From assembly GCA_037444665.1 (NCBI GenBank), contig JBBILZ010000038.1, positions 1 to 25,629 on the forward strand: a stretch of DNA of 25,629 bases, written 5' to 3'. Under the pieces are notes generated by a model, which had not been told where the DNA came from, ran no database searches, and saw only the letters and a list, made by a program, of their open reading frames with translations. Source of the stretch: a candidate division WOR-3 bacterium (GTDB lineage: Bacteria > Hydrothermota > Tepidihabitantia > SM23-42 > JAOAFX01). Positions 440 through 16,359 of this stretch are shown here, piece after piece. The first letter of the stretch is position 1. Each line of letters opens with the position of its first letter. Made by a program: the position numbers and the translations under genes.

Positions 440-1210
440 TTACAATTTTTTCGCAACGATAATCATTCTTTTTCCCCCAACGAAGGGTTTCCTATTATAG
501 TCACTAAACACATCAACAATTTTTAATCCGCTGGTCAACATTAATTCTCTCATTTCAGGATACAAAGTGTAGCGTAGTTGAAAAAAGTATGCATAATGGT
601 CTCCTGTTGCGTTTTTGTTATTAATTTGTTGATATATGTAGTTTACACACAATATTTGCGTATTGTAATTATATCGCAATTCCTCAATTTTCTTAAATGC
701 TATGCCTTTTTTTCTATCAATTATTTTGTATTGAGCATTTTTTTCCCTGAAGGCGAAAGAGGGAATAAAAGTTTCATTTATAAACACTCCATTTTTTTCT
801 AAATGCTGACGAACATTTTTCAACACTTGCAATTGTTCCTCCTTACTAATTATGTGCATAAAGGTGTTAAATACACATATAATTAACGAAAACCTTCTCC
901 TTAAGGTAAAATTCTGCATTTGAGCATGGACCAATTCGATATTTTTCTGAACAGCCTGTGGCCTTTGGGCAATTTTATCTTTCGCAATTTTCAGCATATG
1001 CAGAGAATTATCAATTCCAGTAACTTTTATACCTGCCTCGGCTATTGGAATTATAATTCTGCCTGTACCACAACCCAATTCTAACACTCTACCCTCTTGT
1101 TTTTTGGCATATGCGAGTATAAAAGGGATGTCATCTACTTTGTCGCTGAATTCTATGTCATAAAGATTGGCATAGAAATTATTTCCGTCGCGCATTAACA
1201 AATTATTCAT
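440..1210 (-). CDS. Class I SAM-dependent methyltransferase
   Basis: Motif I VLELGCGTGR, post-I TGIDNS, motif II FSLIICVFNTFMH; 256 aa; directly downstream of the radical SAM gene. Confidence 0.92.
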   Translation of the reverse strand: MNNLLMRDGNNFYANLYDIEFSDKVDDIPFILAYAKKQEGRVLELGCGTGRIIIPIAEAGIKVTGIDNSLHMLKIAKDKIAQRPQAVQKNIELVHAQMQNFTLRRRFSLIICVFNTFMHIISKEEQLQVLKNVRQHLEKNGVFINETFIPSFAFREKNAQYKIIDRKKGIAFKKIEELRYNYNTQILCVNYIYQQINNKNATGDHYAYFFQLRYTLYPEMRELMLTSGLKIVDVFSDYNRKPFVGGKRMIIVAKKL

Positions 1211-1272
1211 TTACACTGATTACGTAAAAGTTCATAATTAAGAAAGTTTCGCCGTAAAATCCGAAATTGATG

Positions 1273-2226
1273 TCACTGGTTCCGAAGCCTATTAAACCAC
1301 GATACAAATTTTTCATTAATAATTTTATCATTAAGTGCCCTTTTGACTAAATTATATAATGAATTGCATCCAGTGTAAAGACCCAAAGAGACTTTCATTG
1401 GAGTTAGTTGGACATTCCTTTTATAGTCCACACTAATGCCAAATGGAATTTTTTGATTATCAAATTTCGCATTTGCGGTATCTTGTACAAATTCACATTG
1501 GTCGTTTTCATGTAAGGCGAATACATAACTTTGGCCAAAGTAATTTCCCAAACATTCAAATTTTTTTTCTATAGTGCTTACTTCTGATAAAAACTCGCTT
1601 TGAGTAATAGATAGAAACTGTTCATTAATTTCGCCTCTGCCATCTTTATCCACTTTGCATATATTAAAAAACCGAGCCCCCATATCTTTGGCTAAAAGCG
1701 CTGTCTTTAAGGCATCTCCAATGTTATGTTTGTTTGACACCATCGTAATTGCAAATTGTATTTTTTTGAATTCCGATAAAATTTTTAGGCCAGATATTAT
1801 TCTATCGTAAGTACCTTGGCCCCTCACTCGATCATTTATTTTAGATTCAGAACCATCTAAGCTTACATATAAATTATGTCTAAATCCAACATCGTATAAC
1901 TTTTGTAATGTGGTTTTTGTTAATAAAGACCCATTCGTACTAATTGATGGTAAAATATTAAGGCTGCGTATATATTTTATTATATTGATAAAATTAGGAT
2001 GCGCAAATGGCTCACCACCGCCCACATATAAAGTCAATACCCCTAACTTTTTAATATCCTTAATTATGCCTACAATCTCAGGAAACGATAAAAATATATT
2101 GATTTCAGGGCTAGAGTTGGAATAACAATGAAGACACCTAAAATTGCAATAACCAGTAATTGCAATATGAGCTCCTCTAAAATATATTTTCTCTTTAATA
2201 GTTACGGTATTTCTGAATGATACCAA
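1273..2226 (-). CDS. Radical SAM protein without a Cys-rich SPASM domain; candidate peptide maturase
   Basis: CNFRCLHC (CxxxCxxC), GGGEPF, STNG and VSLDG motifs; TTG start with GGAG RBS at 2232-2235; C-terminus has only scattered Cys. Confidence 0.9.
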   Translation of the reverse strand: MVSFRNTVTIKEKIYFRGAHIAITGYCNFRCLHCYSNSSPEINIFLSFPEIVGIIKDIKKLGVLTLYVGGGEPFAHPNFINIIKYIRSLNILPSISTNGSLLTKTTLQKLYDVGFRHNLYVSLDGSESKINDRVRGQGTYDRIISGLKILSEFKKIQFAITMVSNKHNIGDALKTALLAKDMGARFFNICKVDKDGRGEINEQFLSITQSEFLSEVSTIEKKFECLGNYFGQSYVFALHENDQCEFVQDTANAKFDNQKIPFGISVDYKRNVQLTPMKVSLGLYTGCNSLYNLVKRALNDKIINEKFVSWFNRLRNQ

Positions 2227-2276
2227 TTTAACTCCAAGATTGGCGTCTTTCGCTTCGTATGGTAAAAAAAGAAGTG

Positions 2277-2311
2277 ATAGGGAGGGATTTTATATATTTC
2301 ACCCTCCCTAT
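2277..2311 (-). terminator. Terminator-like stem-loop between the peptide ORF and the radical SAM gene
   Basis: 10-bp inverted repeat ATAGGGAGGG (2277-2286) / CCCTCCCTAT (2302-2311); CACTTCTTTTTTT follows on the - strand. Confidence 0.7.
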
Positions 2312-2345
2312 TAAATCTCCTTTTAGCCTAACGTATCTCAAATTA

Positions 2346-2486
2346 CTACGGAAGTGGTACATCTCTTCCGCGTTCTGCTGGATCGATACTCCATACATTT
2401 TCATTATTGGTATCGATCTCATTGGGCAAGATAACAACGCCCAATCGTCCCAACAAACCTAATAAATGCTGGAGCAATATCTGCAT
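2346..2486 (-). CDS. 46-aa putative RiPP precursor MQILLQHLLGLLGRLGVVILPNEIDTNNENVWSIDPAERGRDVPLP (not in ORF track)
   Basis: Hand-translated; AGGAGGT RBS 4 nt before ATG; tandem stops TAG TAA; first ORF with a consensus RBS after the sigma54 promoter, followed by a hairpin then rSAM + methyltransferase. Confidence 0.75.
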   Translation of the reverse strand: MQILLQHLLGLLGRLGVVILPNEIDTNNENVWSIDPAERGRDVPLP

Positions 2487-2540
2487 TTTAACCTCCTATG
2501 TCTCCTATGTCTATATTGGTTATAACATTTTTTTATTTTT

Positions 2541-2680
2541 ACCCCGGCCCCCGAGGATTACGACCTTTTTGAAGGACCCTTTTCGCTGCTGATTTTTGTA
2601 GGCAGGTCTTTAATACAACCAGCATCTAAACCCACAAACCAATAACCATGCCTTTTAAACAGCAGGGGTCAGGGCCGGAA
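2541..2680 (-). ncRNA. Putative structured cis-regulatory leader RNA, copy 1
   Basis: 138/140 identical to 5951-6090; nested pairings CCGGCCC/GGGCCGG, GACCC/GGGUC, CUGCUG/CAGCAG, AGGCA/UGCCU; lies between the sigma54 promoter and the first gene. Confidence 0.55.
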
Positions 2681-2730
2681 CAGTCTGGTCTATCTGGTTT
2701 CTCTGGTTTTTTTAGTTTTTCTGGTTTCAT
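2681..2730. repeat. Degenerate 9-bp tandem repeat (e.g. TCTGGTTTC, TCTGGTCTA)
   Basis: Visible 9-nt periodicity; the homologous tract at 6091-6176 is 36 nt (4 units) longer. Confidence 0.75.
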
Positions 2731-2796
2731 AATTCCTCTCTGCCTTTCTTTGCCTTCAGTTACCCTTAATTGCCCTGTCATTTCTATCCCCAATTC

Positions 2797-2890
2797 TTTT
2801 TCGCCTTCTTTAGCCATATTTAGCCCCTTTTCGCCATATTTAGCCCCTTTTCGCCATATTGAGCCCTTTTGAGCCTTTTTTCGCCATCTA
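2797..2890. repeat. 10/20-bp tandem repeat (TAGCCCCTTTTCGCCATATT)
   Basis: 2821-2840 is identical to 2841-2860, flanked by degenerate 10-mers of the form nnGCCnnnTT. Confidence 0.85.
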
Positions 2891-2901
2891 CGGATTATAT
2901 A

Positions 2902-2918
2902 TGCAAAAACCGTGCCAG
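2902..2918 (-). promoter_or_regulatory. Sigma54 (-24/-12) promoter, cassette C
   Basis: CTGGCACGGTTTTTGCA matches the YTGGCACGrNNNTTGCW consensus; identical at 6384-6400 and 13120-13136. Confidence 0.9.
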
Positions 2919-3007
2919 GTGTAAAGTGCTGAAATTTCAAGACTTTGAATTTTTTAGCTGATGGCTAATATCAGTAACTCTAAAACAGTGTCGATTTTCT
3001 TCGGAAA

Positions 3008-3040
3008 TCAACTATTTTCTTCCGGGCAGAAAATAGTTGA
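3008..3040. other. 13-bp perfect inverted repeat (terminator of the 758-aa gene, or an operator of cassette C)
   Basis: TCAACTATTTTCT-N7-AGAAAATAGTTGA; only a weak U-tract. Confidence 0.5.
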
Positions 3041-3086
3041 AGTACTAATAACCATACCATGATTTTCAACTTTTCAAACTATATTA

Positions 3087-5363
3087 TTATCGTATTACTG
3101 ATCTTTTATAGAGCAATAAATTTAAAAAAACAATAACATATAAGCAAGCAGCAATTAAGAAATTGTATTTATAACCAAAATATTGAGCAACAATCATAGC
3201 AAATACGCTACCGAAAACTGACATAATACCATTTATTCCATAAGCAACACCTATATCAGCATTGTGCTGTTTAGCAAACATAGCAATTATCATTGGGAAA
3301 AACATCCCCATTGGAAAACCTATGATTATTGTTATGATACCAACAAAAATAATTTGTAATACTTCATTTATACTGCCTAAGTTTAACATTAAAAAATCAA
3401 TAAAAAGGAATAGTAGTAACCCTATAACCGGCATCAATATTAAAATAATTCTCTTCCTATAATGTATGCTAAATAAGCCACCCAGACTACAGGCAACCAA
3501 AAAACTGAATAACACAACACCAAAAGACAATAATGGCTTGCCTAAAAAATAAATAAATTTTTGAATTATTGAAACTTCCATTAACATAAAACCAGCACCC
3601 AGTAGATAGAAATTTGATATTAATAAATAGTTACCTTTTCTTTTAAGGGACAGCAACATTAAAATTGCCAAAATAGCGGTAATAATACATAAACTAATAA
3701 ATGACCAGTGCGGACTCCTGGAAAAATCAAAGAAGAACGGTTTTTCATCAATTACTGGTTTAATATTAATACCCTCATTCTTCTGCACCCTATTAATAAA
3801 ATACTCTAACTCGCCTAATGAAGCGAATTTTATATCCATTTTTTCATTTACAAAAGGCAGAAATTTAACAATAAGATTTCTTTTAAGAGATTCATTTTTT
3901 ATAGCCTCTGCCATAAGCGTATCTATTTCATTTTTGAAAAATAGTATCAAATATCTGTACGGTGAATCAGTTAGAAAATTCTGAATAATTGCCAGATGTT
4001 TATATGTATCAGACATATTTATACCTGACTCTTGCAAGGCAAAAGTCATTGTGGTGATTGATCGCAAAAGGAATGGATATGTCTCACAAAAAAGTGCAAC
4101 CACACCATTCGGTTTTAAATGATTATAATAATCTTTATACGCTTCTACGGTATGAAGATAACTCTCCGCATAGGGTATTCCAGTTTTTGTAGTTGTATTA
4201 GTCAATGAAAGGCTCAAAAAAATTAAATCATATTTTTGCTTATTTCTCCTTAAAAAATTTCTACCCTCTCCATCCGTAAATTTTAAGCGTGGATTATTTA
4301 ATATATTTCCATTAAAATCTTTGTATTCTTCCAAGATTTTTCTAATACTGGGATTTATCTCTACCGCATCAATTCTATTCATTCCAGCAATTTCACCAAG
4401 GATTATATCAAGCCCACCTCCAGGACCGATACTGAGAAAGTTTTCTTTTAATGTAAATTCAAATGGGAGATAATTAATTGTGTTTTTAAGCCATTTTAGA
4501 TTTTCAAAACCAGCACGAGCATTAAACATAATTGAAGGTGCACCACCATCCACAAAAATTGCCTTTGTTTCTAAGTTATTTCTGTAGATTATGATATCGG
4601 TCCTAAACACATAACTCCAATAGGTCTTTTCAATCCGGGCATTTTTGTTTTTTTGCAATAATTGAACCATTACTTTTCTACCTTGATTTGACGGAATCTT
4701 ATCAAAAGGAATGTCAATGAATTGCGTTTTAATATTAATGAGAAAAAGTATAAATAAAACAACAAATCCAATCGTATAGTTCGGTTTCCTCAATGCCAAT
4801 ATTATGGTAACCAAAACAATTAATTGGTATATCAGGATAACATTTATTGGATTAAATATATTGAGGAGAAATATACTGATCAATACACCAATGCCCGCAC
4901 CAAACAGGTCGGAAAAATACACTACACCAACATAATTAAAAAATAAACGGTAATAAATACTTATAATTATTCCAGCAAGAAGGAACTGCGGCAAGAAGAT
5001 GCATGCCATGATTACCGCGTGAGTTAGTAAGATTGGCAGTAATAGAGGTACAAATAACGGAATAAAAAAAGCAAGACCGTATAATATGCAAATTAATAGT
5101 ATATGTTTCTCCCCTAAATCAAATTTTGATGTTAGCAAACCGCCAAATCCATAACCCAGAAGTGCTATAGAAATAGATAAAAAGATATAATAGTTGCTGA
5201 AGATTAATGAAAAATACCTGGTAATGGTGATTTCAAAGCCTAGACTCGTAAGTGAAATAACAAATAATATTATGCTTGAGTTCAATAGACACATTATATT
5301 TGGTATAGTATTTTGGTTACTTATTTTTTCTTCCCAATACACTGTTATTATTATATCCAACAT
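3087..5363 (-). CDS. Polytopic membrane protein with a central spermidine-synthase-like (class I SAM-fold) domain
   Basis: N- and C-terminal hydrophobic helix blocks (Y-F-S-D-L-F-G-A-G-I-G; LGAGFMLMEV; GFPMGMFFP; YGINGIMSVFGS); central LSIGPGGGLD, DAVEINP, EGRNFL, YDLIFLS; true start may be the later Met (MCLLNSS). Confidence 0.8.
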   Translation of the reverse strand: MLDIIITVYWEEKISNQNTIPNIMCLLNSSIILFVISLTSLGFEITITRYFSLIFSNYYIFLSISIALLGYGFGGLLTSKFDLGEKHILLICILYGLAFFIPLFVPLLLPILLTHAVIMACIFLPQFLLAGIIISIYYRLFFNYVGVVYFSDLFGAGIGVLISIFLLNIFNPINVILIYQLIVLVTIILALRKPNYTIGFVVLFILFLINIKTQFIDIPFDKIPSNQGRKVMVQLLQKNKNARIEKTYWSYVFRTDIIIYRNNLETKAIFVDGGAPSIMFNARAGFENLKWLKNTINYLPFEFTLKENFLSIGPGGGLDIILGEIAGMNRIDAVEINPSIRKILEEYKDFNGNILNNPRLKFTDGEGRNFLRRNKQKYDLIFLSLSLTNTTTKTGIPYAESYLHTVEAYKDYYNHLKPNGVVALFCETYPFLLRSITTMTFALQESGINMSDTYKHLAIIQNFLTDSPYRYLILFFKNEIDTLMAEAIKNESLKRNLIVKFLPFVNEKMDIKFASLGELEYFINRVQKNEGINIKPVIDEKPFFFDFSRSPHWSFISLCIITAILAILMLLSLKRKGNYLLISNFYLLGAGFMLMEVSIIQKFIYFLGKPLLSFGVVLFSFLVACSLGGLFSIHYRKRIILILMPVIGLLLFLFIDFLMLNLGSINEVLQIIFVGIITIIIGFPMGMFFPMIIAMFAKQHNADIGVAYGINGIMSVFGSVFAMIVAQYFGYKYNFLIAACLYVIVFLNLLLYKRSVIR

Positions 5364-5390
5364 ATTGCAGAAATCAAGTAGTTGTTAGAA

Positions 5391-5437
5391 AAATAAAAAA
5401 GTACCGGGGAGTCTTTTTTTATATCTCCCCGGTACTT
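5391..5437 (-). terminator. Intrinsic terminator after the small secreted-protein gene
   Basis: 13-bp stem AAGTACCGGGGAG (5399-5411) / CTCCCCGGTACTT (5425-5437), followed by a U-rich tract on the - strand. Confidence 0.8.
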
Positions 5438-5467
5438 CACCTATTGAATGATTATATGAATTACCGA

Positions 5468-5883
5468 TTAATTGCCAGCATCATTTGGTGGAGGGGGCGT
5501 TGATCTTGTGCATTGAAAATTGTAAGACCCAAGATCCCAGTGAGGCTGCCAGGTATAAGATGGACTCCAATCTGAATATTTAGACACACCATTCTCTACA
5601 ATGTGTGCATAGGCTCTGAATGTTCCTGATTGAAGACCTGTCTCACAGTTTATCAGAAACCAACTATTTCCGCTTGTATATTCGTATGCTGTAGTATCTA
5701 CTGTTCCTGTGCTATACCTAACAACAATCTTTCGGAATTGATTACCCGCCCCTTGTCCCTGACTATTATAAACATATCCATTCAATCCACACTTGGTTCT
5801 GGGATCGTGGTGCTTGTTTGCAGCGTTTAAAAAAATGCAAAACCAATGCACAGCATTATGATTAGGGCAAAGTATTTCCTCAT
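5468..5883 (-). pseudogene. Small secreted protein (~138 aa) frameshifted in a T7 tract at 5829-5835
   Basis: AGGAGG RBS + ATG at 5883 gives MRKYFALIIMLCIGFAFF* (signal-peptide-like); one extra T joins it to LNA-ANKHHDPRTKCG... of the track ORF 5468-5923. Confidence 0.7.
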
Positions 5884-5950
5884 AAAAACCTCCTATGCTT
5901 TTGAATGAAGTATGATACTTCATTCATATCCTAATGCTTTTTATTATTGC

Positions 5951-6090
5951 ACCCCGGCCCCCGAGGATTACGACCTTTTTGAAGGACCCTTCTCGCTGCT
6001 GATTTTTGTAGGCAGGTCTTTAATACAACCAGCATCTAAACCCACAAACCAATAACCATGCCTTTTAAACAGCAGGGGTCAGGACCGGAA
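5951..6090 (-). ncRNA. Putative structured cis-regulatory leader RNA, copy 2
   Basis: Differs from copy 1 at two sites: one in a predicted bulge (5992) and one changing C-G to a U-G wobble on the - strand (6084). Confidence 0.55.
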
Positions 6091-6176
6091 CTGTTTGGTC
6101 TATCTGGTTTCTCTGGTCTATTTGGTCTTTTTGGTCTGTTTAGTCTTTCTGGTTTATTTAGTTTATCTGGTTTCAT
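6091..6176. repeat. Degenerate 9-bp tandem repeat, expanded copy
   Basis: Units such as TTTGGTCTA, TCTGGTTTC, TTTAGTCTT. Confidence 0.75.
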
Positions 6177-6205
6177 AGTTCATTTCTGCCTTTCTTTGCC
6201 TTCAA

Positions 6206-6300
6206 TTGCCATTTTTCCCTTCTTTTCCCTTCTTTACCCTTCTTTACCCCTTTTTACCCCTTTATACATAGCCTTCTTTAGCCATCTTTCGCCTATTTAG
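6206..6300. repeat. Degenerate 10-bp pyrimidine-rich tandem repeat (CCCTTCTTTW, GCCWTCTTT)
   Basis: Visible 10-nt periodicity; positionally equivalent to 2797-2890. Confidence 0.7.
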
Positions 6301-6383
6301 TTAATCTCGTTCCTTCATTTCGTTTTTTTATTTTTTAAACCAGCATCTCAACCCAAACCCAATAACTATCTGGCAAATATATA

Positions 6384-6400
6384 TGCAAAAACCGTGCCAG
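6384..6400 (-). promoter_or_regulatory. Sigma54 (-24/-12) promoter, cassette B
   Basis: CTGGCACGGTTTTTGCA, consensus match. Confidence 0.9.
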
Positions 6401-6438
6401 GTGCAAGGTGTTGAAATTTCAAGAGTTTTAATTTTTCT

Positions 6439-6534
6439 TGTGCCATTTTTGGCACAGAGTTATCCACATTTTTTCCACAAAATCACGCAAACGCAGGACA
6501 GTTCAGCATCTATACGAGTGCCAAATTTGGCACA
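6439..6534. promoter_or_regulatory. Two palindromic putative upstream activating sequences GTGCCA-N4-TGGCAC
   Basis: TGTGCCATTTTTGGCACA (6439-6456) and AGTGCCAAATTTGGCACA (6517-6534), upstream of the sigma54 promoter. Confidence 0.65.
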
Positions 6535-6666
6535 ACCCCCAATTTTTGCCTGATTTTTACCAGCCAAGACGAAAACCCTACGAAATTTCAAAAATTTTGT
6601 TGAAACTTTTGAATAAAAATTTGCTAAATTTTTGCTACACTTTTTGACCTGCTGATTTTTTATTTT

Positions 6667-6771
6667 GTCATTCTGACTCTGAGCGGAGCGAAAGGAAAGA
6701 ATCTGTAATTGAGATTCTTCGCCCGCCACTCTCCGCCACACTTCTTGGCGGATTGGCGGGCTCAGAATGAC
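6667..6771. repeat. REP/RPE-like palindromic intergenic element
   Basis: Ends GTCATTCTGA...TCAGAATGAC with inner AAGAATCT/AGATTCTT and GCCCGCCA/TGGCGGGC stems; GC-rich against an AT-rich background. Confidence 0.7.
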
Positions 6772-6830
6772 AGGTAGGATGTTGCTTGCCCTTTTTGCCT
6801 CCAATGCCTTCAATTGCCCCCAATTGCCTT

Positions 6831-8933
6831 TTAAAAATATACCAGATACTTTGCCTTTATTGCCCCAACCTGATTCTGTAACCTAAGACTGCCATTCTGA
6901 TCTGTGCGATAGTCATTTAAAGCAATATATAACCACGATTTGGGCTTAAAATTATAAGAAAAGAGAAAACCAAAGCGATTGGTCAAAAATTCTGTAGCAC
7001 CAAAGTCTGTGCCCGGTGTAGTAAAGACAAATTCATTGAAGATGCCAAAGGTCATTTTTGGGGTAATCGTAAAATCTATCCTCGGCGTTGCCATGGGCCA
7101 GATCGCAATGATTGTATTTGTCGTATCCCATTCTACCCAGGAATAAGAATCAAAATTTATTGAAACACGGGGCATTATTGTCCAGTAAAACCCATGATAG
7201 GTATTTGCCTGATACCCAAGAAATCCCCGATAATAATTGTAAGAATAACTCACATTACCACCTGCCCAGATATTATAACTTGGACCATTACCCCAGATTG
7301 ATAGATTCACATTCCTTGTAAGATAACTGGTATCTGACTCATAATAAGGCCCTGCCTCAAGCTCCAGATTCCCACCCCAATTATTCCTGAAATTGGGATT
7401 GAAACATATAAATCCAATCCTTGACCAGTCTTTTCCACCTGGTATCCGACCTATCGCACCACCAAAACCAAGCCAGAGATTCCTCATAAAACCTTTTGGG
7501 TAGGTCTTATATGGACCAGTAAAGAATAAAAACTGCCTCACACCTGCCCAGGGCACATATCCAATATCCTTTACATCAAATGAATCTCCTATCCACTGCA
7601 CACTGCCTAAAGTAAGAAAATTCTTAATAAAACCCATATACCCTGAATTGAATGCCCACCCTTTTTTGTTGTCTCTGTCACTGAATGCAGTCTGCATAAT
7701 AAACTGATTCGGACCTGAACGATATGCACCATCAAGACCAATTGCATAATTATATGTATCACTATTTACTGCTGTGCCACTGAAAAGTATGCCTAAGTCT
7801 GAGGCAGATAAAACCTTATACTTTGCCCTCAATACACCAAAGCCACGAGCCGGCTCAATCAGGGTATCATTATGCTTTATCTTATCAGTATATGCACCAA
7901 AAAGACCATAATTCAATCTCTCGGATTTACTTGTTAATTTCAAACCCCCAATTATATCCACAACTTCACTATTGATTGATTTACCTATTCTCCGCGAATA
8001 GAAAATCCGCAATGGCTTAAAGAATCCTGTACCCTGACCAAAGTCTGACATCCGAAAGATATCTGCACCCTCAAGGAAGAATGGCCTTCGCTCACTCAGA
8101 TAGGTCTCATACTGGGTTAAATTCAATGTGAATGGGTCAGATTCAATCTGGGCAAAGTCAGGAAATGCAGTGGCATTGAGTGTGGTCTGGGAAGTAATAT
8201 CCCATTTAAGATTCATACTACCACTGAATTTGGTTTCAGTCTTAACACTATCTTTATCACGGCGCAAAAAACCCTCAGGATAGATTTCAAAATAATAACC
8301 AGTTGCCTGGGGATTGATATTCTTTAATGTGCCAAACTTTGAAACGAGCATCCCCTCTTTCTGTGAGACTTCGGTCCAGTAATCAGTCTCCTGATTTGAA
8401 GAGATATAACGCTTAAAGTTTATTCCCCATTCAGAAAGTCCCTTTTTATAACGAATGGACTTGAATGGTATTTTAATCTCAACTTCATAATGGTCATCAT
8501 AGACTTTTACTGCATAATCCCAGACCCCATCCCAGGAATCGTCCCTTGTCCTGCCGTCATCAAGAACTAAACCATCAGAATATATGCCACTTATATGAAC
8601 GGCAAATGAGTAGGCGGTTGTCTTAATACCAAATGGGTCAATATATAATACAACTGCATCATCATTTGAACTCATCTGATTTACTGGCTTTGAATTCAAT
8701 GTCCAGCATCTGAATGCAACAAATAGGTTATTTTTGTCCTGTAAAAGATAGACCACTGTATTATCGGTTGGTTTTTCTTTCTCATAAGGAAAGGTCTGGA
8801 TAAAATCATAGGTAGAATCTGCATTCTGCCAGATTTCTTCAATATACCCATCAACCACTGGTGCAACCTCACAAAACCGCACCTCAAGGGATTTGTTTGC
8901 CGAACATAATAAAAAGATTATTAAAAAATCCAT
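6831..8933 (-). CDS. DUF5916 / carbohydrate-binding family 9-like putative outer-membrane protein
   Basis: N-terminal hydrophobic signal; P-VVDG...W and SWDGVW...EIKIPFKSIRY (CBM9-like); PDFAQIESD, ERRPFFLEG, FYSRRIG motifs; C-terminal KAKYLVYF beta-barrel-type ending. Confidence 0.8.
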   Translation of the reverse strand: MDFLIIFLLCSANKSLEVRFCEVAPVVDGYIEEIWQNADSTYDFIQTFPYEKEKPTDNTVVYLLQDKNNLFVAFRCWTLNSKPVNQMSSNDDAVVLYIDPFGIKTTAYSFAVHISGIYSDGLVLDDGRTRDDSWDGVWDYAVKVYDDHYEVEIKIPFKSIRYKKGLSEWGINFKRYISSNQETDYWTEVSQKEGMLVSKFGTLKNINPQATGYYFEIYPEGFLRRDKDSVKTETKFSGSMNLKWDITSQTTLNATAFPDFAQIESDPFTLNLTQYETYLSERRPFFLEGADIFRMSDFGQGTGFFKPLRIFYSRRIGKSINSEVVDIIGGLKLTSKSERLNYGLFGAYTDKIKHNDTLIEPARGFGVLRAKYKVLSASDLGILFSGTAVNSDTYNYAIGLDGAYRSGPNQFIMQTAFSDRDNKKGWAFNSGYMGFIKNFLTLGSVQWIGDSFDVKDIGYVPWAGVRQFLFFTGPYKTYPKGFMRNLWLGFGGAIGRIPGGKDWSRIGFICFNPNFRNNWGGNLELEAGPYYESDTSYLTRNVNLSIWGNGPSYNIWAGGNVSYSYNYYRGFLGYQANTYHGFYWTIMPRVSINFDSYSWVEWDTTNTIIAIWPMATPRIDFTITPKMTFGIFNEFVFTTPGTDFGATEFLTNRFGFLFSYNFKPKSWLYIALNDYRTDQNGSLRLQNQVGAIKAKYLVYF

Positions 8934-9085
8934 AAACCTCCTTTGATTGTGAAATACCGAATATCAATTAAACTCCTATTTCTAAACATTATTAAATTTC
9001 TGTCTCGCCAGCATCCCAACCACAACCCCAAACCATCTTTTATTTGTAATACGCAATTTATACAAAAAAGTTTCAATTTATTTTA

Positions 9086-9763
9086 TCATTTAACAGAAAA
9101 CCTACCGTCGTCTGGAACTTTTAAAAACAGACACCCTGCTCCCTTTTCCTTAGTCTCACGGTCAAACAGAGATAAATCAATACGCAAATATTCTTCCCTA
9201 TATTCTTTTCTTAACGCACACTGGATAAGATAACTAATAATTTGCTTACCCTTACCTGCAGATTCATTTACTGAACTGATTTCTAAAATTTCACTTCGCA
9301 CACCGTTGATTTTAATCTCAATATCGTCAGGTAATATTTTTGGTGCAATATCAACCAGCTTCATCTTTTTCACAACATCAACACCACCTTGGTTCTGAAC
9401 TCTTTTAAGACTCATCGGTCTGAAGTAAATCATTATTGACCGAATGGGCGTCTGTGGAATAAATGCATTCATTGCATAAATCTCAAGTCCATCAATGCGA
9501 GGATTAATTTTTAAATCTTTATATGCCGGAACATTCCAAACCCAGTATTCAAGATTTTTGCTCTTATAATCCTTACATGCCATCAGGGCTAAATATGTTC
9601 CGGGTTTAACTAGAATCTTATACCTGCCACTGGCATCAGAATGCGTTTTATAAAGTGTCTTAAAATCGCAACCCATAATCTCAACTTCTGCATCCACAAT
9701 AACTTTGCCTCTAAAATCTGTCACCCTGCCGGAAATTTTAGCAAGTTTTCTCTTCATCACCAT
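9086..9763 (-). CDS. Carboxypeptidase-regulatory-like (transthyretin-like fold) domain protein
   Basis: ISGRVTD...DAEVEI...SDASGRYKILVKPGTY pattern; no signal peptide; start may be 9763, 9760 or 9757. Confidence 0.65.
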   Translation of the reverse strand: MVMKRKLAKISGRVTDFRGKVIVDAEVEIMGCDFKTLYKTHSDASGRYKILVKPGTYLALMACKDYKSKNLEYWVWNVPAYKDLKINPRIDGLEIYAMNAFIPQTPIRSIMIYFRPMSLKRVQNQGGVDVVKKMKLVDIAPKILPDDIEIKINGVRSEILEISSVNESAGKGKQIISYLIQCALRKEYREEYLRIDLSLFDRETKEKGAGCLFLKVPDDGRFSVK

Positions 9764-9766
9764 AGT

Positions 9767-9794
9767 ATTTTATACAAATTTCCCTAAAATCCAA
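9767..9794 (-). promoter_or_regulatory. Possible sigma70-type promoter giving a leaderless mRNA
   Basis: TTGGAT-N16-TAAAAT directly ahead of ATG-GTG-ATG; no SD sequence. Confidence 0.4.
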
Positions 9795-9864
9795 GTGTTC
9801 CATTAATAAATACAAATCTTCACTCGGTTCTTTGTCAAAAGGTTACTTTTGTATCTTTCTCTCA

Positions 9865-11538
9865 CTATGTTGTCTTAGAGTTACAAATTTCTCCATTCTT
9901 GATTTTGTAGACATAATCTGCCATTCTTAGTAGTGAATGCCGATGTGTAGTAATTAATACCGTTCTATTTTCCGCAAGTTTCTTCAACTCCTTCAAAATC
10001 TTATCTTCTGTAGACCTATCTAAGGCTGAAGTTGGTTCATCCATAATTATAATTGGTGGTGATTTAAGAAAGATACGGGCAATGGCAATTCTCTGGCGCT
10101 CACCCCCTGAAAGAGAAAATCCACGCTCTCCAACCACTGTTTGAAAACCGCTGGGCAGTGCCACAATAAATTCATAAAGACCTGCCTTCCTTGTCGCCTC
10201 TTTAATTTCTTCTTCGGTAGCATCTAAGCGGGCAATTTGAATATTCTCATAAATAGAGCGATTAAAGATATAAGTATCTTGCTCCATCAGCCCTATCATC
10301 CTCAACCATTCTTCTAGTTTAACATCATTTAAGTCAACATTATTTATCCTTATTACGCCTGACTCAGGTTTAAGAAATCCCAAAAGTAAGTTAACAAGTG
10401 TAGTCTTTCCAGAACCAGAATATCCCATTAATGCGACTATCTTTGACCTTGGAATTTTTAAATGAATATTATTTAGGATGGGTTTGTGATTATCATAGCT
10501 GAATTTGACTCTTTCAAAGCAAATATATTCAATATTTGTTGGTAAAGGCGAGTATATTTTTTTAATTGGGGATGGTTTGTATTGGCGGAATTCATAAAGC
10601 CTTTCAATTGAAGCGATGGCAGGTTGTAGACCACTTACCAGTACGGATAAACCTCTTAGTGGCGTAGTTGCAGTCATAAAAAGGAGTATAAAACTCATAA
10701 ATCCGCCAACGGACAAACTATTTCGCATAACTTCGTTAATTCCTATCCATATAAGAACTCCCAAAATTGGAAAATATAACAGTGTAGGAATACTAGAACC
10801 AAAGATTATATTCCGCCAAGAAAAATGCCATTGGACCTTTAAGTATAGATAAAGCTGGGAGGCAAAGACTTTTTTTTCGTTCTCCTCTAAACCAAAGGCG
10901 TGAATTATATTTATCCCCTGGAGAGTCTCTTGAATTCTTGCTCCAAGTTGAGCATAATATTCTTGGATCTTTTTAGCCCAAGGGCGTAGCCGGGGCGCGA
11001 TGAAATATAAGTTTAATATAAATAGCGGATATATAGTAAGTCCGATTAGCGCAAGTTTGGAGTTAAGAGAGAGCAAGGACCAAACAAGGAAGATTGCAGA
11101 TAATACCTGACCCAAAGCCATTAAATTTTCTTTACTTATCAATTCCATAGACCCCTCTACATCCTTTAATATCCGCTGGAGTATGTATCCAGATTGTTTA
11201 GAAAAAATAACTGCCGTAGGTATTCCTAAGGAATGATTATAGAAATATTCCCGGAGAGTTTGCTCGATGCGCAGTTTTAATCTTAAAAACAAAATTCCTT
11301 TGAGAATATTAAAACAAAATCCAAAAGTAATTACCACCAGATAAATAATCCCCCATCGCATAAGAACCATTGGTTCTTTGGTATAGACGGCTGCATCAAC
11401 CAATGGTTTAATAAATAAGAAATAGCACATTGTAATAATCTCGGCAGCAATAAAAAGAATGGAAACGATAATAAAGTTTAGCCAAAGTTTATTGAAAAAG
11501 GTTGAGAAATACCAGCAAAGCAGTTTCTTTGCCTTCAT
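9865..11538 (-). CDS. ABC exporter, fused permease + ATPase, without a C39 peptidase domain
   Basis: Hydrophobic N-terminal half; Walker A GYSGSGKT, signature LSGGERQR, Walker B IIIMDEP, H-loop TTHR. Confidence 0.95.
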   Translation of the reverse strand: MKAKKLLCWYFSTFFNKLWLNFIIVSILFIAAEIITMCYFLFIKPLVDAAVYTKEPMVLMRWGIIYLVVITFGFCFNILKGILFLRLKLRIEQTLREYFYNHSLGIPTAVIFSKQSGYILQRILKDVEGSMELISKENLMALGQVLSAIFLVWSLLSLNSKLALIGLTIYPLFILNLYFIAPRLRPWAKKIQEYYAQLGARIQETLQGINIIHAFGLEENEKKVFASQLYLYLKVQWHFSWRNIIFGSSIPTLLYFPILGVLIWIGINEVMRNSLSVGGFMSFILLFMTATTPLRGLSVLVSGLQPAIASIERLYEFRQYKPSPIKKIYSPLPTNIEYICFERVKFSYDNHKPILNNIHLKIPRSKIVALMGYSGSGKTTLVNLLLGFLKPESGVIRINNVDLNDVKLEEWLRMIGLMEQDTYIFNRSIYENIQIARLDATEEEIKEATRKAGLYEFIVALPSGFQTVVGERGFSLSGGERQRIAIARIFLKSPPIIIMDEPTSALDRSTEDKILKELKKLAENRTVLITTHRHSLLRMADYVYKIKNGEICNSKTT

Positions 11539-11551
11539 ATTAAAAAATCAA

Positions 11552-12856
11552 TCAGTTTTCTTTCCTTTTTTCTGCATGCAGAAGTAGTAATTGTTTGAAT
11601 ATATACCGCCAGTAAATACAACCCGACTCGCGATTCTCAGGTTCAGTCTCTCTGCGCCGGGGGCATCCTCCTAAGCAGATAGGAACGATGGGACAACACA
11701 AACACCCTTCAGTCGCCCGCCAATTAGAAAAGATCCATTCTATGGTGCGATTTTTCTTCAAATCTATTCCAGTTTCAATGTTACCCACAGCCTTATCTTC
11801 ATCACCAACATCTTCCCAACACGCATATATTTCTCCGCATGGTCCTATCACCCAGCTAGAAAATTTTTTCCAAATACAACTATTAAAAGAAGGATAAAGG
11901 GCTGGTAATGGTAAATTCAATCGCCTCATCTCCTTTAATATCTTTAAATAATATTGACCAAAATTTGATGTCGTGAATAATGTATCTCCACGGGATTTAC
12001 ATATAGAACCTGCTTTAGAAATGACCTGGCCGAAATTAATCGTCAACCGATCCCAATTCTTTATTGAAGCAGCTAAGTCTTTTAAAAAAGGGAGCATATA
12101 TTTTTCATTCTCTTTATCAATATTTATTCTTAATTTTACCCTGATATCGATTTTATTAGCAAGGATATCAAAAATATTTCGCATTATAATATCATAGGTG
12201 CCAGTTCCATCCTTAAAAGGTCGTCGGAAGTTGTGAATTTCAGATGGGCCATCAATCGTTACTTGTGCATCTGTAATTTTACATAACGAAAAGAAATCTC
12301 TGTCGCATTCTGATATTAACGTTCCATTTGTAACCAACCCAGCGGTATATTTAATATCCCGTTTACTACATTCAGTTTGAATGGTTTGTGATATTTTAGC
12401 AATTGTATCCATCTCTAAAAGGGGTTCGCCTCCATACCAAGTAATGTGCAAAGAGGCTGGATGAAATTCATCTATCTTTTGTAGAATAAAAATAATCACC
12501 TTTTTTGTGATAGAAGCATCCATACCGACATTTTTGTTTGTAGTCGTTTCATAGCAGTAAATGCACTGCAGGTTGCAAAAAAGAGTGGGGATTATTGTGA
12601 AACTGATATTCACTGATGAATATTTCAGTGAATAATAGAGGTGGTTAACATAAGATATTTCATTAAATGCATTCGGCACCCAAAAAAGTCCTTTTACCAA
12701 CTCCTGAATCACTTCAGATGATATGGAAGTTTCTTTTCCTTCTAAAAAGGCAACTATTTTACCATCTATCTTACACAAGGCATTCGTTAACGGATTATAT
12801 GCTAAATAGTTATCTTTACCGAAAGGAATTATTAAATTAAATTTATTTTTTCGCAT
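11552..12856 (-). CDS. Radical SAM/SPASM peptide maturase
   Basis: CNLQCIYC, WYGGEPL, TNG, TIDG; SPASM C...GPCGEIYAC...CLCCPIVPICLGGC...C; ~80-aa N-terminal extension (possible RRE); start placed at MRKNKF (12856) rather than TTG 12883. Confidence 0.92.
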   Translation of the reverse strand: MRKNKFNLIIPFGKDNYLAYNPLTNALCKIDGKIVAFLEGKETSISSEVIQELVKGLFWVPNAFNEISYVNHLYYSLKYSSVNISFTIIPTLFCNLQCIYCYETTTNKNVGMDASITKKVIIFILQKIDEFHPASLHITWYGGEPLLEMDTIAKISQTIQTECSKRDIKYTAGLVTNGTLISECDRDFFSLCKITDAQVTIDGPSEIHNFRRPFKDGTGTYDIIMRNIFDILANKIDIRVKLRINIDKENEKYMLPFLKDLAASIKNWDRLTINFGQVISKAGSICKSRGDTLFTTSNFGQYYLKILKEMRRLNLPLPALYPSFNSCIWKKFSSWVIGPCGEIYACWEDVGDEDKAVGNIETGIDLKKNRTIEWIFSNWRATEGCLCCPIVPICLGGCPRRRETEPENRESGCIYWRYIFKQLLLLHAEKRKEN

Positions 12857-12904
12857 AATGCACTCTTTCTCCCTTTTATGCAAAAATTTTAATCTTTGTG
12901 AGTT

Positions 12905-12947
12905 AAAAAGGTGCCCATGTAAAGAGCATTACTTAACACGGGCACCT
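12905..12947 (-). terminator. Terminator-like hairpin between the Cys-rich peptide and the maturase
   Basis: - strand AGGUGCCCGUGU...ACAUGGGCACCU (one G-U pair) followed by a U-run. Confidence 0.75.
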
Positions 12948-12972
12948 ACCCAATATAAAAATCATCTTCCGC

Positions 12973-13092
12973 CTATTCTACTTCGTATCCAGATCCACCG
13001 AGGCAAAAACAAATAGGCGAACAAAACTCACTACATTTAACACCACATGGCCCGCCTATGGGCGATGATGGTTTTTCAATCCATGAAAGCAT
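12973..13092 (-). CDS. 39-aa Cys-rich RiPP precursor MLSWIEKPSSPIGGPCGVKCSEFCSPICFCLGGSGYEVE (not in ORF track)
   Basis: Hand-translated; AGGAGGT RBS 4 nt before ATG; ATG ~17 nt after the predicted sigma54 start site; CxxxCxxxCxxxCxC; directly upstream of rSAM/SPASM + ABC exporter. Confidence 0.85.
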   Translation of the reverse strand: MLSWIEKPSSPIGGPCGVKCSEFCSPICFCLGGSGYEVE

Positions 13093-13119
13093 TTATACCT
13101 CCTTTCGGAAATTTATATA

Positions 13120-13136
13120 TGCAAAAACCGTGCCAG
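13120..13136 (-). promoter_or_regulatory. Sigma54 (-24/-12) promoter, cassette A
   Basis: CTGGCACGGTTTTTGCA, consensus match; a sigma54 activator gene lies just upstream. Confidence 0.92.
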
Positions 13137-13174
13137 GTGCAAAGTGTTGAAATTTCAAGACTTTTAATTTTTCT

Positions 13175-13293
13175 TGTCTCATCCAGTGAGACAGGTTTTT
13201 TGAAAAATTTCAGCAAAAATCGTGTAAATGCAGGCCGGTTCTGCATTTGCGGGTGTCTCATCTGGTGAGACACCTGTCTCATAAAATGAGACA
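13175..13293. promoter_or_regulatory. Three perfect palindromes TGTCTCA-N5-TGAGACA, putative enhancer-binding-protein sites
   Basis: At 13175-13193, 13254-13272 and 13275-13293; TGT...ACA architecture typical of Fis-type EBP sites. Confidence 0.8.
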
Positions 13294-13473
13294 AACATGA
13301 AAATTTCATTAAATTTTAAGTTACACACGGTAAAACTGTTGAAATTTCATAACTTTTTTCAAAATTCTACGGCAAATTCAGTAAATTTCTAAGGGAAATG
13401 GTTGAAAATCTCTGACCGGGATATCCTTAAGAAAAATTTTAACATTCTATTTTTTTTCTTTTTGTCAGTTTTA

Positions 13474-13517
13474 GGGATTGCCACGCCCGCCGAGAATCGC
13501 GGTGGGCTCGCAATGAC
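13474..13517. repeat. Partial REP/RPE-like palindromic element
   Basis: GGGATTGCCACGCCCGCCG...CGGTGGGCTCGCAATGAC; resembles the right half of 6667-6771. Confidence 0.55.
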
Positions 13518-13556
13518 ACTGAGTATGAATAATGCGGGTTAGACCGAAGGCAAAAA

Positions 13557-15350
13557 TTAGTCACCTACTTTTTTGTTGACTATCTTGAGGTACCGATAGA
13601 GCTGGGCACGGGATATTTTTAGACTTGCACAGGTCTTTTTAATATCTTTATTGTTTGAAATAAAACATTCGTAAATTAACTTTGCTTTATATTGCTTAAC
13701 CTTTTCTTCAATTGACAATGGCTCAATAGATTTTAATCCCAAATCCTCCACACCAATCTCAGACTTTTTACAGAATAGGTATGCCTGCCTTAATATGCCT
13801 TCAAGTTCTCTAACATTTCCCGGAAAGTCATAATTTGTTAGCGCAGCTATTGCCTCCTCAGAGATGCCTTCAACAAAATTCTTAGACTGACTTTTTAACT
13901 TTAAAAATATGTGCCATACCAGTTCAGGAATCTCCTCCTTTCGTTCACGCAGGGGTGGAATCCGAATTGAAGGTGAATAGATACGATAGTATAGGTCTTC
14001 ACGGAATTTTTTATCCCGGACCATCTGCTTTAAGTCTTTATTCGTCGCAAAGATAAATCGCACATCAACTTTTTTTGCTTCATTTGAACCGAGTCTACAT
14101 ACTACCCTGTCCTCAAGCACTCGTAATAGTTTACCCTGAACATCTAAGGGCAGATCACCAACTTCATCTAAGAAGAGCGTCCCCTTATCAGCAAATACTA
14201 TCTTACCCTCACGGTCTGCGCGGGCATCAGTGAATGCACCTTTTTTATAACCGAATAACTCAGCCTCAAAGAGATTCTCAGGAATTGTATTACAATTTAC
14301 TGCCACAAATCTACCAGCTGCCCTTTTACTTTCATTATGAATCGCTGAGGCAAGCAATTCCTTGCCTGTTCCACTCTCACCAATAATCAAGATATTTGAT
14401 TCCTGATGTGCCAGACGTCTTGCCTCTCTTTTTATTGCTTTTAGTCCAATAATATCCTCAAATGTAAATTTTGCCAGTGTACTATTTATCTTCTCACTTT
14501 TTTCAAGTTCCTCCTGCACGAGTTCAAATAAGAATAAATAATTTTTATTATAAGATTTACGCACCACAAGAAAACTCTTTTCCAGTATTTGTGAGTATAT
14601 CACCCGATTTATAATCTCTTGCCTCTGCAATAATTTTTCATCAAAATAACCAGTTATATTGTTCCCTTTTTCTATTTTTAATAATTTCCCTGCACAGGGA
14701 TTGAGATAGCATATCACACCATCCAGGTCTGTCACGACTATGGCAGTATGTAAGGTATTACAAACTGAAATCACAAAATTCCCCTCTAATACATTCTCGT
14801 ATTCTTTTTCGATCAGCATTGCTAAGGTCTGAACCAGGGCAAATGTATGAGGATGACCAATTTTATGAGGATGCACTATTACAATCGTTCCTAATAATGT
14901 ATGATTATTAAAGATCGGCGCACTAAAACACGCACCTTTCTGGAAAATTTTTAGATAATATTCCTTACCGGCAACAAAGACTGGTTTCTTATGTTTGATA
15001 CTGAGGGCTACCGCATTTGTCCCTGCATCCTCTTCACGCAAGGAAACACCTTCAGCTAAATCCATACGAATGCGCTGCCGCAATATTTTATCTGGACCAA
15101 TGACTTTTATAACATAACCTTCACTATCAGTCAAAACTATTATTGAATCACACATTCTAAATATATCACTGCAAATTTTCATATAAGGGAATGCTGAGGT
15201 TATGAAAATTTCATTATCTTTTTGACATTTGATGAGCGCAGAACTGGATAGTCTCCTGGTAAGACGACGCCTATCAGGAGCAAGTCCCATTCTCTGACAA
15301 CGGTCTTTTGATTCAATTATCCATTTTTTCCGCTCATCATTTTTCTTCAT
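13557..15350 (-). CDS. Sigma54-dependent transcriptional activator (AcoR-like: GAF - PAS-like - AAA+ - Fis HTH)
   Basis: I-ES--RC-R-GL and GTNAVAL (AcoR-type N-terminus); GESGTGKE, ELFGYKKGAFTDA, TLFLDEVG, FREDLYYR, FPGNVREL; HTH LKISRAQLYRYLK; AGGAG RBS. Confidence 0.93.
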   Translation of the reverse strand: MKKNDERKKWIIESKDRCQRMGLAPDRRRLTRRLSSSALIKCQKDNEIFITSAFPYMKICSDIFRMCDSIIVLTDSEGYVIKVIGPDKILRQRIRMDLAEGVSLREEDAGTNAVALSIKHKKPVFVAGKEYYLKIFQKGACFSAPIFNNHTLLGTIVIVHPHKIGHPHTFALVQTLAMLIEKEYENVLEGNFVISVCNTLHTAIVVTDLDGVICYLNPCAGKLLKIEKGNNITGYFDEKLLQRQEIINRVIYSQILEKSFLVVRKSYNKNYLFLFELVQEELEKSEKINSTLAKFTFEDIIGLKAIKREARRLAHQESNILIIGESGTGKELLASAIHNESKRAAGRFVAVNCNTIPENLFEAELFGYKKGAFTDARADREGKIVFADKGTLFLDEVGDLPLDVQGKLLRVLEDRVVCRLGSNEAKKVDVRFIFATNKDLKQMVRDKKFREDLYYRIYSPSIRIPPLRERKEEIPELVWHIFLKLKSQSKNFVEGISEEAIAALTNYDFPGNVRELEGILRQAYLFCKKSEIGVEDLGLKSIEPLSIEEKVKQYKAKLIYECFISNNKDIKKTCASLKISRAQLYRYLKIVNKKVGD

Positions 15351-16358: not shown

Positions 16359-16359
16359 A

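Follow-up and report, generated by a model that had tools for sequence, protein, structure and literature searches.

The DNA analysed here, referred to below as the window, is a stretch of 25,629 nucleotides comprising the whole of contig C38 (JBBILZ010000038.1) of a candidate division WOR-3 bacterium, whose genome is 99.5% complete and extends over 2.54 Mb in 120 contigs, with 37.7% GC. The minus strand of the window carries all the genes of three neighbouring cassettes, each preceded by an identical predicted sigma-54 promoter, together with the gene of an enhancer-binding protein (EBP) of the kind that acts on such promoters. The explanation that we favour on comparative sequence evidence, and consider reasonably probable, is that the three expression cassettes form an island that varies between strains, serve the production of small exported products and are built on an enhancer-promoter scaffold that is served by a single activator. 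The recognition helix of this activator and the palindromic enhancer sites would come in matched classes, cassette 3 alone in this genome would be matched to the helix class of the resident activator, and a leader RNA would add a further layer of control. The most likely present state is a modular platform with one putatively wired cassette, cassette 3, and two that appear mismatched or decayed.

An earlier note on this DNA had described a promoter block near positions 2896, 6378 and 13114 with a consensus sigma-54 -24/-12 element, and this stands. A 47-mer occurs at 2896-2942, 6378-6424 and 13114-13160 with no mismatches, and none of 100 shuffles gave a match. On the minus strand it reads GAAATTTCA-N12-TGGCACGGTTTTTGCATATATA (also written ...CTTGAAATTTCA-N12-TGGCACGGTTTTTGCATATATA), with GG at -24, GC at -12 and the pattern TGGCAC-N5-TTGCW at exact spacing, and TGGCACGGTTTTTGCA is present in all three copies. 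In the third copy this -24/-12 element lies at 13135-13120 with GAAATTTCA before it, and transcription is predicted to start near 13109. The earlier note had held that its reading would fail if the genome lacked rpoN or if the block were a dispersed repeat. The rpoN gene is present (Sigma54_DBD at C30:7362-7820, 157 bits), and no further match to the 47-bp block was found in the genome when up to three mismatches were allowed. The genome contains nine strong Sigma54_activat loci, and its other sigma-54 promoters drive pilin-like and exported proteins, each with palindromes of its own and often with an EBP gene just upstream.

The block is the core of a predicted enhancer-promoter scaffold of about 230 bp that is used across the genus and the order. 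When related genomes were searched with a relaxed form of the promoter pattern it was found at 19 places in 11 of 61 genomes, and alignment of ten regulatory regions from six genomes revealed a single layout of about 230 bp. In it, two distal palindromes and a central one, AAATGCAG-N8-CTGCATTT, come first; they are followed by the word TGTGGATAA, once or twice, by a proximal palindrome, by AAAAATTAAAAGTCTTGAAATTTCA and lastly by the -24/-12 element. Palindromes of three classes are found at equivalent positions of this layout, namely TGTCTCA-N5-TGAGACA, as at cassette 3, ACTGACA-N5-TGTCAGT, and TGTGCCA-N4-TGGCACA, as at cassette 2. The same scaffold precedes different payloads in the relatives, which bears out the earlier suggestion of a conserved expression scaffold loaded with different payloads. 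The word GAAATTTC, of which the genome has 117 copies, stands 9-23 nt before the -24 element at 8 of 95 GGCAY-N5-TTGC sites; on the basis of that copy number the expected count is about 0.07.

Upstream of the three block copies of the window the enhancer sites differ. Cassette 3 has three palindromes of the form TGTCTCA-N5-TGAGACA (13175-13193, 13254-13272 and 13275-13293, minus strand), arranged around the central AAATGCAG-N8-CTGCATTT, and they are the sole such sites in the genome. Cassette 2 has palindromes of the TGTGCCA-N4-TGGCACA class on the minus strand between 6439 and 6534, perfect at 6439-6456 and with one mismatch at 6517-6534, and this class is found at no other place in the genome. 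Cassette 1 keeps only a degenerate proximal ACTGACA-like palindrome, ACTGATATTAGCCATCAG, and its distal sites have been lost.

Two further sequence elements of the scaffold may be recorded here. The palindrome TGAAATTTCA, at about -45, precedes the -24 element by about 10-20 nt in most sigma-54 promoters of the genome; in the window it lies at 13148-13156, 6412-6420 and 2930-2938, with a second copy about 215 nt upstream in the cassette scaffolds. It may represent a promoter element particular to this lineage, or a bending protein may have its site there. The TGTGGATAA word resembles a DnaA box and occurs 62 times in the genome; one or two perfect copies stand with AAATGCAG-N8-CTGCATTT between the distal and proximal sites at 6465-6490 and at the related loci L015, L026, L028, L029 and L024.

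The activator proposed in the earlier note at 13557-15350 (minus strand) is encoded there, as a GAF-domain sigma-54 EBP of 597 aa with matches to Pfam Sigma54_activat (PF00158, 2.2e-65), AAA_lid_14 and GAF. The Walker A motif GESGTGKE, the GAFTDA loop, LFLDEVGDL and ...LKISRAQLYRYL can be read in its sequence, and it has a C-terminal helix-turn-helix (HTH) domain (...LKISRAQLYRYLKIV). It had been called AcoR-like, and the GAF/AAA+/HTH layout, which resembles those of DhaR, PrdR and AcoR, agrees with this, but the protein falls far below every NCBIfam cut-off (310 bits against 795 for PrdR, the best, and 257.8 against 551 for DhaR) and there is no AcoR model among the best 25 matches listed. 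One full-length orthologue per genome is present in 24 of the 49 genomes of the order, while searches of a wider contig collection with the protein yielded only generic matches to the AAA+ domain of EBPs, at 32-52% identity and from many phyla, and no orthologues.

From genome-wide site searches over the 49 genomes of the order, 15 of which could be classified, the helix and the palindromes probably form three matched classes: SRAQ with TGTCTCA, SERQ with ACTGACA and SRRT with TGTGCCA. Helix class and site class co-vary in 14 of the 15 classified genomes, a count reduced in weight by the relatedness of the genomes, which are non-independent samples, and they also co-vary across two sister pairs. 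The four SRAQ genomes of the genus (the source genome G000, G010, G007 and G003) all carry TGTCTCA clusters and none has an ACTGACA cluster, although G010 has one single site; a TGTGCCA cluster is found in G000 only, at cassette 2. Two SRAQ genomes of genus g5 with shorter matches (G022 and G016) have TGTCTCA-class sites directly after the gene, no ACTGACA clusters (0 of 2) and no TGTGCCA sites. In the eight SERQ/SARQ genomes, ACTGACA clusters occur in 8/8, a TGTCTCA cluster in 1/8 (G004:C88) and TGTGCCA sites in none. The single SRRT genome, G009, has one TGTCTCA cluster, one single ACTGACA site and, at G009:C62, the only TGTGCCA-class cluster among the 49 genomes other than that of cassette 2.

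A tree of the activator constructed without its last 45 residues shows the helix classes interspersed, with sisters of different class in two cases, G000 (RAQ) with G008 (ERQ), at a support of 100/100, and G010 (RAQ) with G001 (ERQ), at 95/94. The locus of the source genome is 92.8% identical to that of G008 from 15451 to 13628. At the recognition helix, with about 70 nt left to the stop codon, the homology collapses, and the enhancer downstream is a different one. The helix and the sites therefore behave as one linked module that is replaced together by recombination. In a related strain (run X2), a contig was observed that joins the upstream flank of cassette 2 (6784-6532) to TGTCTCA sites of the cassette-3 type (13290-13143); the enhancer class at this locus would therefore differ between strains, although the join rests on metagenome contigs and its support is weak.

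Apart from the relatedness of the sampled genomes, some of these results weigh against a strict code of helix and site. Orphan enhancer classes occur elsewhere (G004:C88 and G009:C83), which may mean that the code is less strict than supposed or that there is a further binder. Moreover, G006 carries TGTCTCA clusters and four copies of the leader RNA described below, yet it has no activator orthologue at E <= 1e-100. An alternative, which we regard as unlikely, is that the neighbouring activator drives all three promoters as one regulon, with the differences between the palindromes being irrelevant; it could act by cross-binding, from solution or through looping that starts at the cassette-3 enhancer. 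EBPs at high concentration can activate without bound enhancers, and a single regulon would be in keeping with the identity of the core promoters over 47 bp, with the non-matching site classes of G004 and G009, and with the presence of a single orthologue of the activator in the genome, where none of the other eight EBPs has a helix similar to that of the resident activator and none has an SRRT-like helix. Against it stand the co-variation of helix and site described above, the distances of 6.7 and 10 kb that separate the cassette-3 enhancer from the other two promoters, and the lack of distal sites at cassette 1. The earlier suggestion that all three cassettes lie behind one activator is not supported in that form: cognate TGTCTCA sites are confined to cassette 3, and cassettes 2 and 1 have, respectively, sites of another class and a degenerate proximal site.

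The second component of the system, which is absent from the earlier description, is a leader with an upstream open reading frame (uORF) in cassettes 1 and 2. The small ORF follows the promoter block closely in cassette 3, as had been supposed for all three cassettes, but in cassettes 1 and 2 it lies about 410 and 495 nt downstream of the promoter, behind a leader of about 400 nt in which about 190 nearly identical nucleotides are common to both. The leader consists of purine-rich repeats of about 10 nt (GGC/GGG-AAA), 9-nt AAACCAGAN repeats that open with an ATG, and an element of 120-150 nt. The uORF over the 9-nt repeats is located at 2626..2730 in cassette 1 (MKPEKLKKPEKPDRPDCSGPDPCCLKGMVIGLWV) and at 6036..6176 in cassette 2 (MKPDKLNKPERLNRP...GPDPCCLKGMVIGLWV), where it runs into the RNA element, and the two copies of the element lie at 2538..2686 and 5948..6096, all on the minus strand. 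A third copy of the leader occurs on contig C54, in a fourth cassette, behind a TTGACA-N16-TATAAT promoter and before a 37-aa peptide, a hairpin and a radical S-adenosylmethionine (radical SAM) gene.

Three helices, P1 to P3, were derived with RNAalifold from a plain MAFFT alignment of six copies, and the covariance model R1 built from it scores 167.5 bits for copy 1 and 167.2 bits for copy 2. The model has 38 matches in 12 of 16 genomes of the family, and over the class matches were found in 16 of 132 genomes, all in two families of the order. For 30 aligned copies, 95.8% of the cells are paired and eight pairs are changed on both sides, a result reached by none of 500 shuffles and far above that of slid controls, in an alignment which was, however, fitted to the model. 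Helix P3 covaries, and the frequency of G-U pairs ties the fold to the sense strand. The frame in which the conserved 3' block is read varies, being 2 in 12 loci, 0 in 9 and 1 in 4, so that its conservation is one of nucleotides and not of protein. In 26 of the 30 copies an ORF linked to a Shine-Dalgarno (SD) sequence starts 31-125 nt downstream; two of the remaining copies are cut by contig ends and for two no ORF was found. Sixteen of the 26 ORFs encode peptides of up to 76 aa, many of them Cys-rich, the rest being mostly exported proteins of 126-222 aa, and radical SAM genes follow many of them. The element shows the compensatory changes, the fixed orientation and the fixed distance to the ORF that are expected of a structured cis-regulatory leader. 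Rfam gave no matches at gathering threshold over the whole window and, over 2300-3000, three chance-level matches (E = 2.3-5.7), and we consider the leader a candidate new RNA motif.

The fitted alignment is one of several points that count against the favoured explanation. A single copy of the RNA folds only modestly better than shuffles (z = -1.66), and a sigma-54 promoter is found 180-343 nt upstream in only 11 of the 30 copies. At least 11 copies have 800 nt or more of upstream sequence without a sigma-54 promoter, some of them with sigma-70-like promoters, which assigns the RNA to the payload and not to the sigma-54 system. In several copies a TTGACA-N16-17 pair with a -10-like element is present between the RNA and the SD sequence and could bypass the leader.

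The most likely function of the leader is control of translation or of mRNA stability, and translation of the uORF may be coupled to it. An attenuator of the trp/his type is not indicated, the element being followed on the minus strand by an A-rich stretch with no U-run and no terminator-like site. For the 9-nt repeats, loading of Rho was considered: Rho is present and C exceeds G in the three copies of this genome, but over 22 loci there are 299 C against 345 G, so that base content does not consistently fit a Rho-loading (rut) site. A role for the purine-rich repeats as a CsrA sponge was rejected, no CsrA having been found in this 99.5% complete genome and the repeats being GGC/GGG rather than GGA.

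An improbable alternative is that the leader element is mainly a small protein gene, what is truly conserved in the cassette then being peptides of 34-130 aa with the pattern MKP(E/D)K...(K/R)P(D/E)RP...GSGPDPC.... Of 27 loci, 23 have an open GSGPDPC frame with an ATG upstream, as compared with 4 and 1 when the remaining frames are considered; the GSGPDPC frame continues without a stop across the 3' block in 21 of 25, and an SD-like GGAG precedes the ATG in several copies. However, a 9-nt repeat unit keeps its frame automatically, in the repeats it is the second position of the codon that varies (CCA, CTA, CAA, CGA) and not the wobble position, and neither the reading of the 3' block in all three frames nor the covariation of P3 is what such a gene would require. 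Least probable of all is that the element and its repeats are selfish or recombinogenic DNA, resembling miniature inverted-repeat transposable elements or attC sites, or serving as portable homology for payload exchange with no role in expression; the similarity of cassettes 1 and 2 stops exactly at the 3' end of the element, copies often lie at contig ends, fragments of the leader repeats are found at C32:120-400 and at 6780-6830 of the window, where there is no cassette, and the related strain joins the cassette-2 flank to cassette-3-type sites, but 26 of 30 copies keep a fixed orientation towards an SD-linked ORF and a fixed distance from it, the G-U pairs make the fold strand-specific, and no target-site duplications or terminal inverted repeats were seen.

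Three observations on sequences associated with the leader RNA are added here. At G000:C54:15600-15640 (minus strand), L039, L048 and L040, a (CCTA/CTAC)n run follows a conserved sigma-70-like promoter within an alternative upstream module of the leader RNA, and its copy number differs between loci, which makes it a possible phase-variation tract. The G/U-rich word GGTnATTGGGTTnGGGTTnAGATGCTGG forms part of the long form of the leader RNA; further copies immediately follow the cassette-2 promoter (6338-6369, minus strand) and stand in a few other 5' regions, at G000 C36:13412, C52:10476 and C22:22568, and in C36 the word can pair with a downstream CCCAACCCTAACC. At L017, L021 and L033 the leader RNA is replaced by another payload-proximal module with a TTGAAT-N16-TAGAAT promoter-like pair, in which a GGGAGAG...CTCTCCC hairpin and a ATTCCGCAAAGCGGAAT hairpin precede a G-rich SD sequence.

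The payloads, which are all encoded on the minus strand, are unrelated between the three cassettes and, by Pfam and NCBIfam profile searches, are either secreted or similar to those of peptides that are synthesised by ribosomes and then modified post-translationally (RiPPs). Their GC content is 29-33%, against 37.7% for the genome, and their peptides have no homologues in the loci fetched from relatives. The enzyme and exporter calls of the earlier note hold up in the searches, that of the SpeE/MFS-like protein weakly. A stable hairpin with a U-run lies 3' of each small ORF, as the note had proposed for all three, at 2258..2320 in cassette 1 (minimum free energy -19.8 kcal/mol, z = -2.90), at 5385..5445 in cassette 2, where it resembles an intrinsic terminator (-25.1 kcal/mol, z = -5.22), and at 12898..12955 in cassette 3, where it is a candidate partial terminator between the peptide and maturase genes (-26.8 kcal/mol, z = -6.43). 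These values come from direct folding, since a terminator scan limited to loops of up to 8 nt picked up, of all three hairpins, no more than an inner stem of 5 pairs in one.

Cassette 3, behind a leader of about 17 nt, encodes a 39-aa precursor-like peptide, MLSWIEKPSSPIGGPCGVKCSEFCSPICFCLGGSGYEVE, at 12973..13092, with an AGGAGG SD sequence and five Cys in the arrangement CxxxCxxxCxxxCxC; it has no homologue in the loci fetched from relatives. The adjoining gene (11552..12883) encodes a radical SAM/SPASM peptide maturase with a CxxxCxxC core (Pfam Radical_SAM, PF04055, 2e-13) and a SPASM domain at residues 342-417 (TIGR04085, 1.7e-12), the composition expected of a RiPP maturase beside a short Cys-rich ORF. 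Its nearest NCBIfam models are Clo7bot (9.5e-71), TIGR04463 (1.1e-68) and CefB (3.1e-63), and it falls below the cut-offs of all of them, with 238.7 bits against 600, 232 against 525 and 214 against 600, respectively, and also below those of SCIFF (78 against 425) and PapB (125.9 against 340). The ABC exporter at 9865..11538 contains a membrane domain and an ATPase (Pfam ABC_membrane and ABC_tran), aligns to positions 159-689 of the 708 of bacteriocin_ABC, and is without an N-terminal C39 peptidase domain.

Cassette 1 encodes a 46-aa peptide, MQILLQHLLGLLGRLGVVILPNEIDTNNENVWSIDPAERGRDVPLP, at 2346..2486, also with an AGGAGG SD sequence, followed by a compact radical SAM enzyme of 317 aa with the motif CNFRCLHC (1273..2226; Pfam Radical_SAM 1.7e-22; best NCBIfam model mycofactocin radical SAM, 94 bits against a cut-off of 265) and by a SAM-dependent methyltransferase (440..1210; Pfam Methyltransf_25 2.4e-19; nearest NCBIfam model daptide_MTase, 108 bits against 175).

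Cassette 2 is not a RiPP cassette, so that the earlier characterisation of the payloads as RiPPs or secreted peptides applies to it only in the latter respect; it encodes a small secreted protein and a membrane protein. Small ORFs with SD sequences had been reported after each block, and those of 46 and 39 aa were recovered, but the secreted one of about 138 aa is split by a frameshift as assembled. The gene extends over 5468..5883, with the signal peptide in the frame 5883-5827 and the mature part at 5842-5468, and its SD-linked ATG (5883) yields MRKYFALIIMLCIGFAFF and then a stop, with the remainder in another frame across a T7 run at about 5836-5830. Homologues of 126 and 129 aa are intact behind the same RNA at L057 and L042. 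The source run is identical to the assembly at the T7 run, and the related run is without an indel there among the rows listed; the frameshift could be an assembly error, a point against the favoured explanation. The membrane protein of 758 aa (3087..5363) has a core weakly similar to spermidine synthase and a C-terminal part resembling MFS proteins (Pfam Spermine_synth 6.2e-4 and MFS_1 6.9e-5; NCBIfam PRK00811 3.5e-7, all below cut-off), and a 47% identical homologue is present at L058.

From these elements the following mode of operation can be proposed for the favoured explanation. The scaffold would be the target of the single-copy GAF-domain EBP, which, on receiving a signal at its N-terminal GAF region, would bind the three palindromic enhancer sites and open the sigma-54 promoter, in keeping with the family's mode of action. 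Helix and palindrome classes would be exchanged together by recombination starting inside the helix-coding 3' end of the gene, leaving cassette 3 wired to the resident activator and cassettes 1 and 2 probably as silent or weakly expressed spares. In the latter two, the repeats, the repeat-encoded uORF and the folded RNA ending 31-125 nt before the payload would constitute a second control layer, and, by analogy, the hairpin and U-run after each small ORF would yield the small product in excess over the enzymes. A bolder version, which we put forward only tentatively, is a three-layer plug-and-play platform for hypervariable exported peptides, where a helix/enhancer module of at least three classes, swapped by recombination, would leave mismatched cassettes as a silent reservoir, the uORF and RNA would gate translation of the payload, and an attenuator after the small ORF would set the ratio of peptide to enzyme.

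Several features of the surrounding DNA were also noted. The first 31 codons of a DUF5916 gene (6831-8933) recur with 100% identity at 2-94 (minus strand), at the left contig end and downstream of cassette 1, and its last 38 codons open contig C32 (G000:C32:1-114), followed by leader-repeat fragments; cassettes 2 and 1 may thus sit between two copies of the DUF5916 gene, or the assembly may have collapsed strain variants. Inverted repeats resembling repetitive extragenic palindromes (TGTCATTCTGAGC... / GTGTCATTGCGAGC...) lie upstream of the regulatory regions of cassettes 2 and 3, at 6666-6772 and 13471-13520 (minus strand). At about 15430-15580, the activator gene and the V-ATPase operon are separated by a sequence that is repeated in high copy in the source run and in related metagenome runs; it is covered by 8-15 contigs, with many loose ends at 15427-15429 and 15550-15578. 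A complete V/A-type ATPase operon follows at 15795-24499 (minus strand; subunits E, K/c, I, D, B, A, F and C), and the gene of an IS481-like transposase (24377-25627, plus strand), which runs off the contig end, overlaps an 84-aa ORF at 24245-24499, the first of the ATPase operon run. In a related metagenome run there was no cover of 9079-12816 and low cover of 1-2670, and this was not counted as evidence.

The regulatory part of the locus resembles sigma-54 systems of the NtrC/NifA/DhaR type, with their Fis-type HTH and palindromic upstream activating sequences (UAS) at 80-200 bp, in its consensus -24/-12 element, in the three palindromic sites about 40-170 bp upstream, in the activator gene directly upstream of its target, and in the arrangement of a GAF sensor, an AAA+ domain with a GAFTGA-like loop and an HTH. 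It is unlike them in that an orthologous single-copy activator switches helix class together with its sites between sister genomes, in the additional lineage-wide palindrome TGAAATTTCA at about -45, and in a protein that falls below the cut-off of every named EBP in NCBIfam. Cassette 3 shares with the named radical SAM/SPASM RiPP operons (ranthipeptide, sactipeptide, SCIFF, Clo7bot and CefB) a Cys-rich precursor directly upstream of the maturase and ABC exporter, with a hairpin between precursor and enzymes, and it differs from them in its maturase below all cut-offs, a precursor without a homologue in the fetched loci, an exporter without C39 and a predicted dependence on sigma-54.

Leaders coupled to a leader peptide or uORF are exemplified by tna- and trp-type attenuation, and 5' stabilisers of mRNA by the STAB-SD elements of aprE and cryIIIA. 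The leader of cassettes 1 and 2 resembles these in its length, in a short uORF that runs into a stable structure and in purine-rich SD-like repeats upstream, but, unlike the tna/trp-type leaders, it has no terminator after the structure and no runs of regulatory codons for a single amino acid. Integron cassettes consist of promoterless ORFs with attC at their 3' end, arrayed beside intI and attI; in the present cassettes the element stands on the 5' side, and a promoter is present for each of them. In Myxococcus xanthus, sigma-54 and EBPs directly regulate secondary-metabolite genes for polyketide synthases and non-ribosomal peptide synthetases, and the parts of that work considered here present no RiPP cassettes, swappable enhancer classes or leader RNA (PMC7910581). 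In the literature, subscription journals excepted, no description was found of a scaffold with swappable enhancer classes, of a linked switch of helix and site, of the leader RNA, or of sigma-54-driven radical SAM RiPP cassettes with such a leader.

The locus suggests that identity of neighbouring promoters does not in itself make them one regulon. A rare natural data set on how the specificity of Fis-type HTH domains is encoded is provided by the matched helix-site classes, which switch between orthologues that are nearly identical, and synthetic biology could draw on these classes for orthogonal sigma-54 switches. The leader RNA has a clear genetic context, before small exported products, which renders its function directly testable. 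For this uncultured lineage, a constitutive activator combined with the matching enhancer class offers a handle for switching on silent radical SAM peptide clusters. If the three-layer platform proves true, the locus would be a natural example of orthogonal EBP/UAS pairs together with a new class of RNA tied to RiPP precursors.

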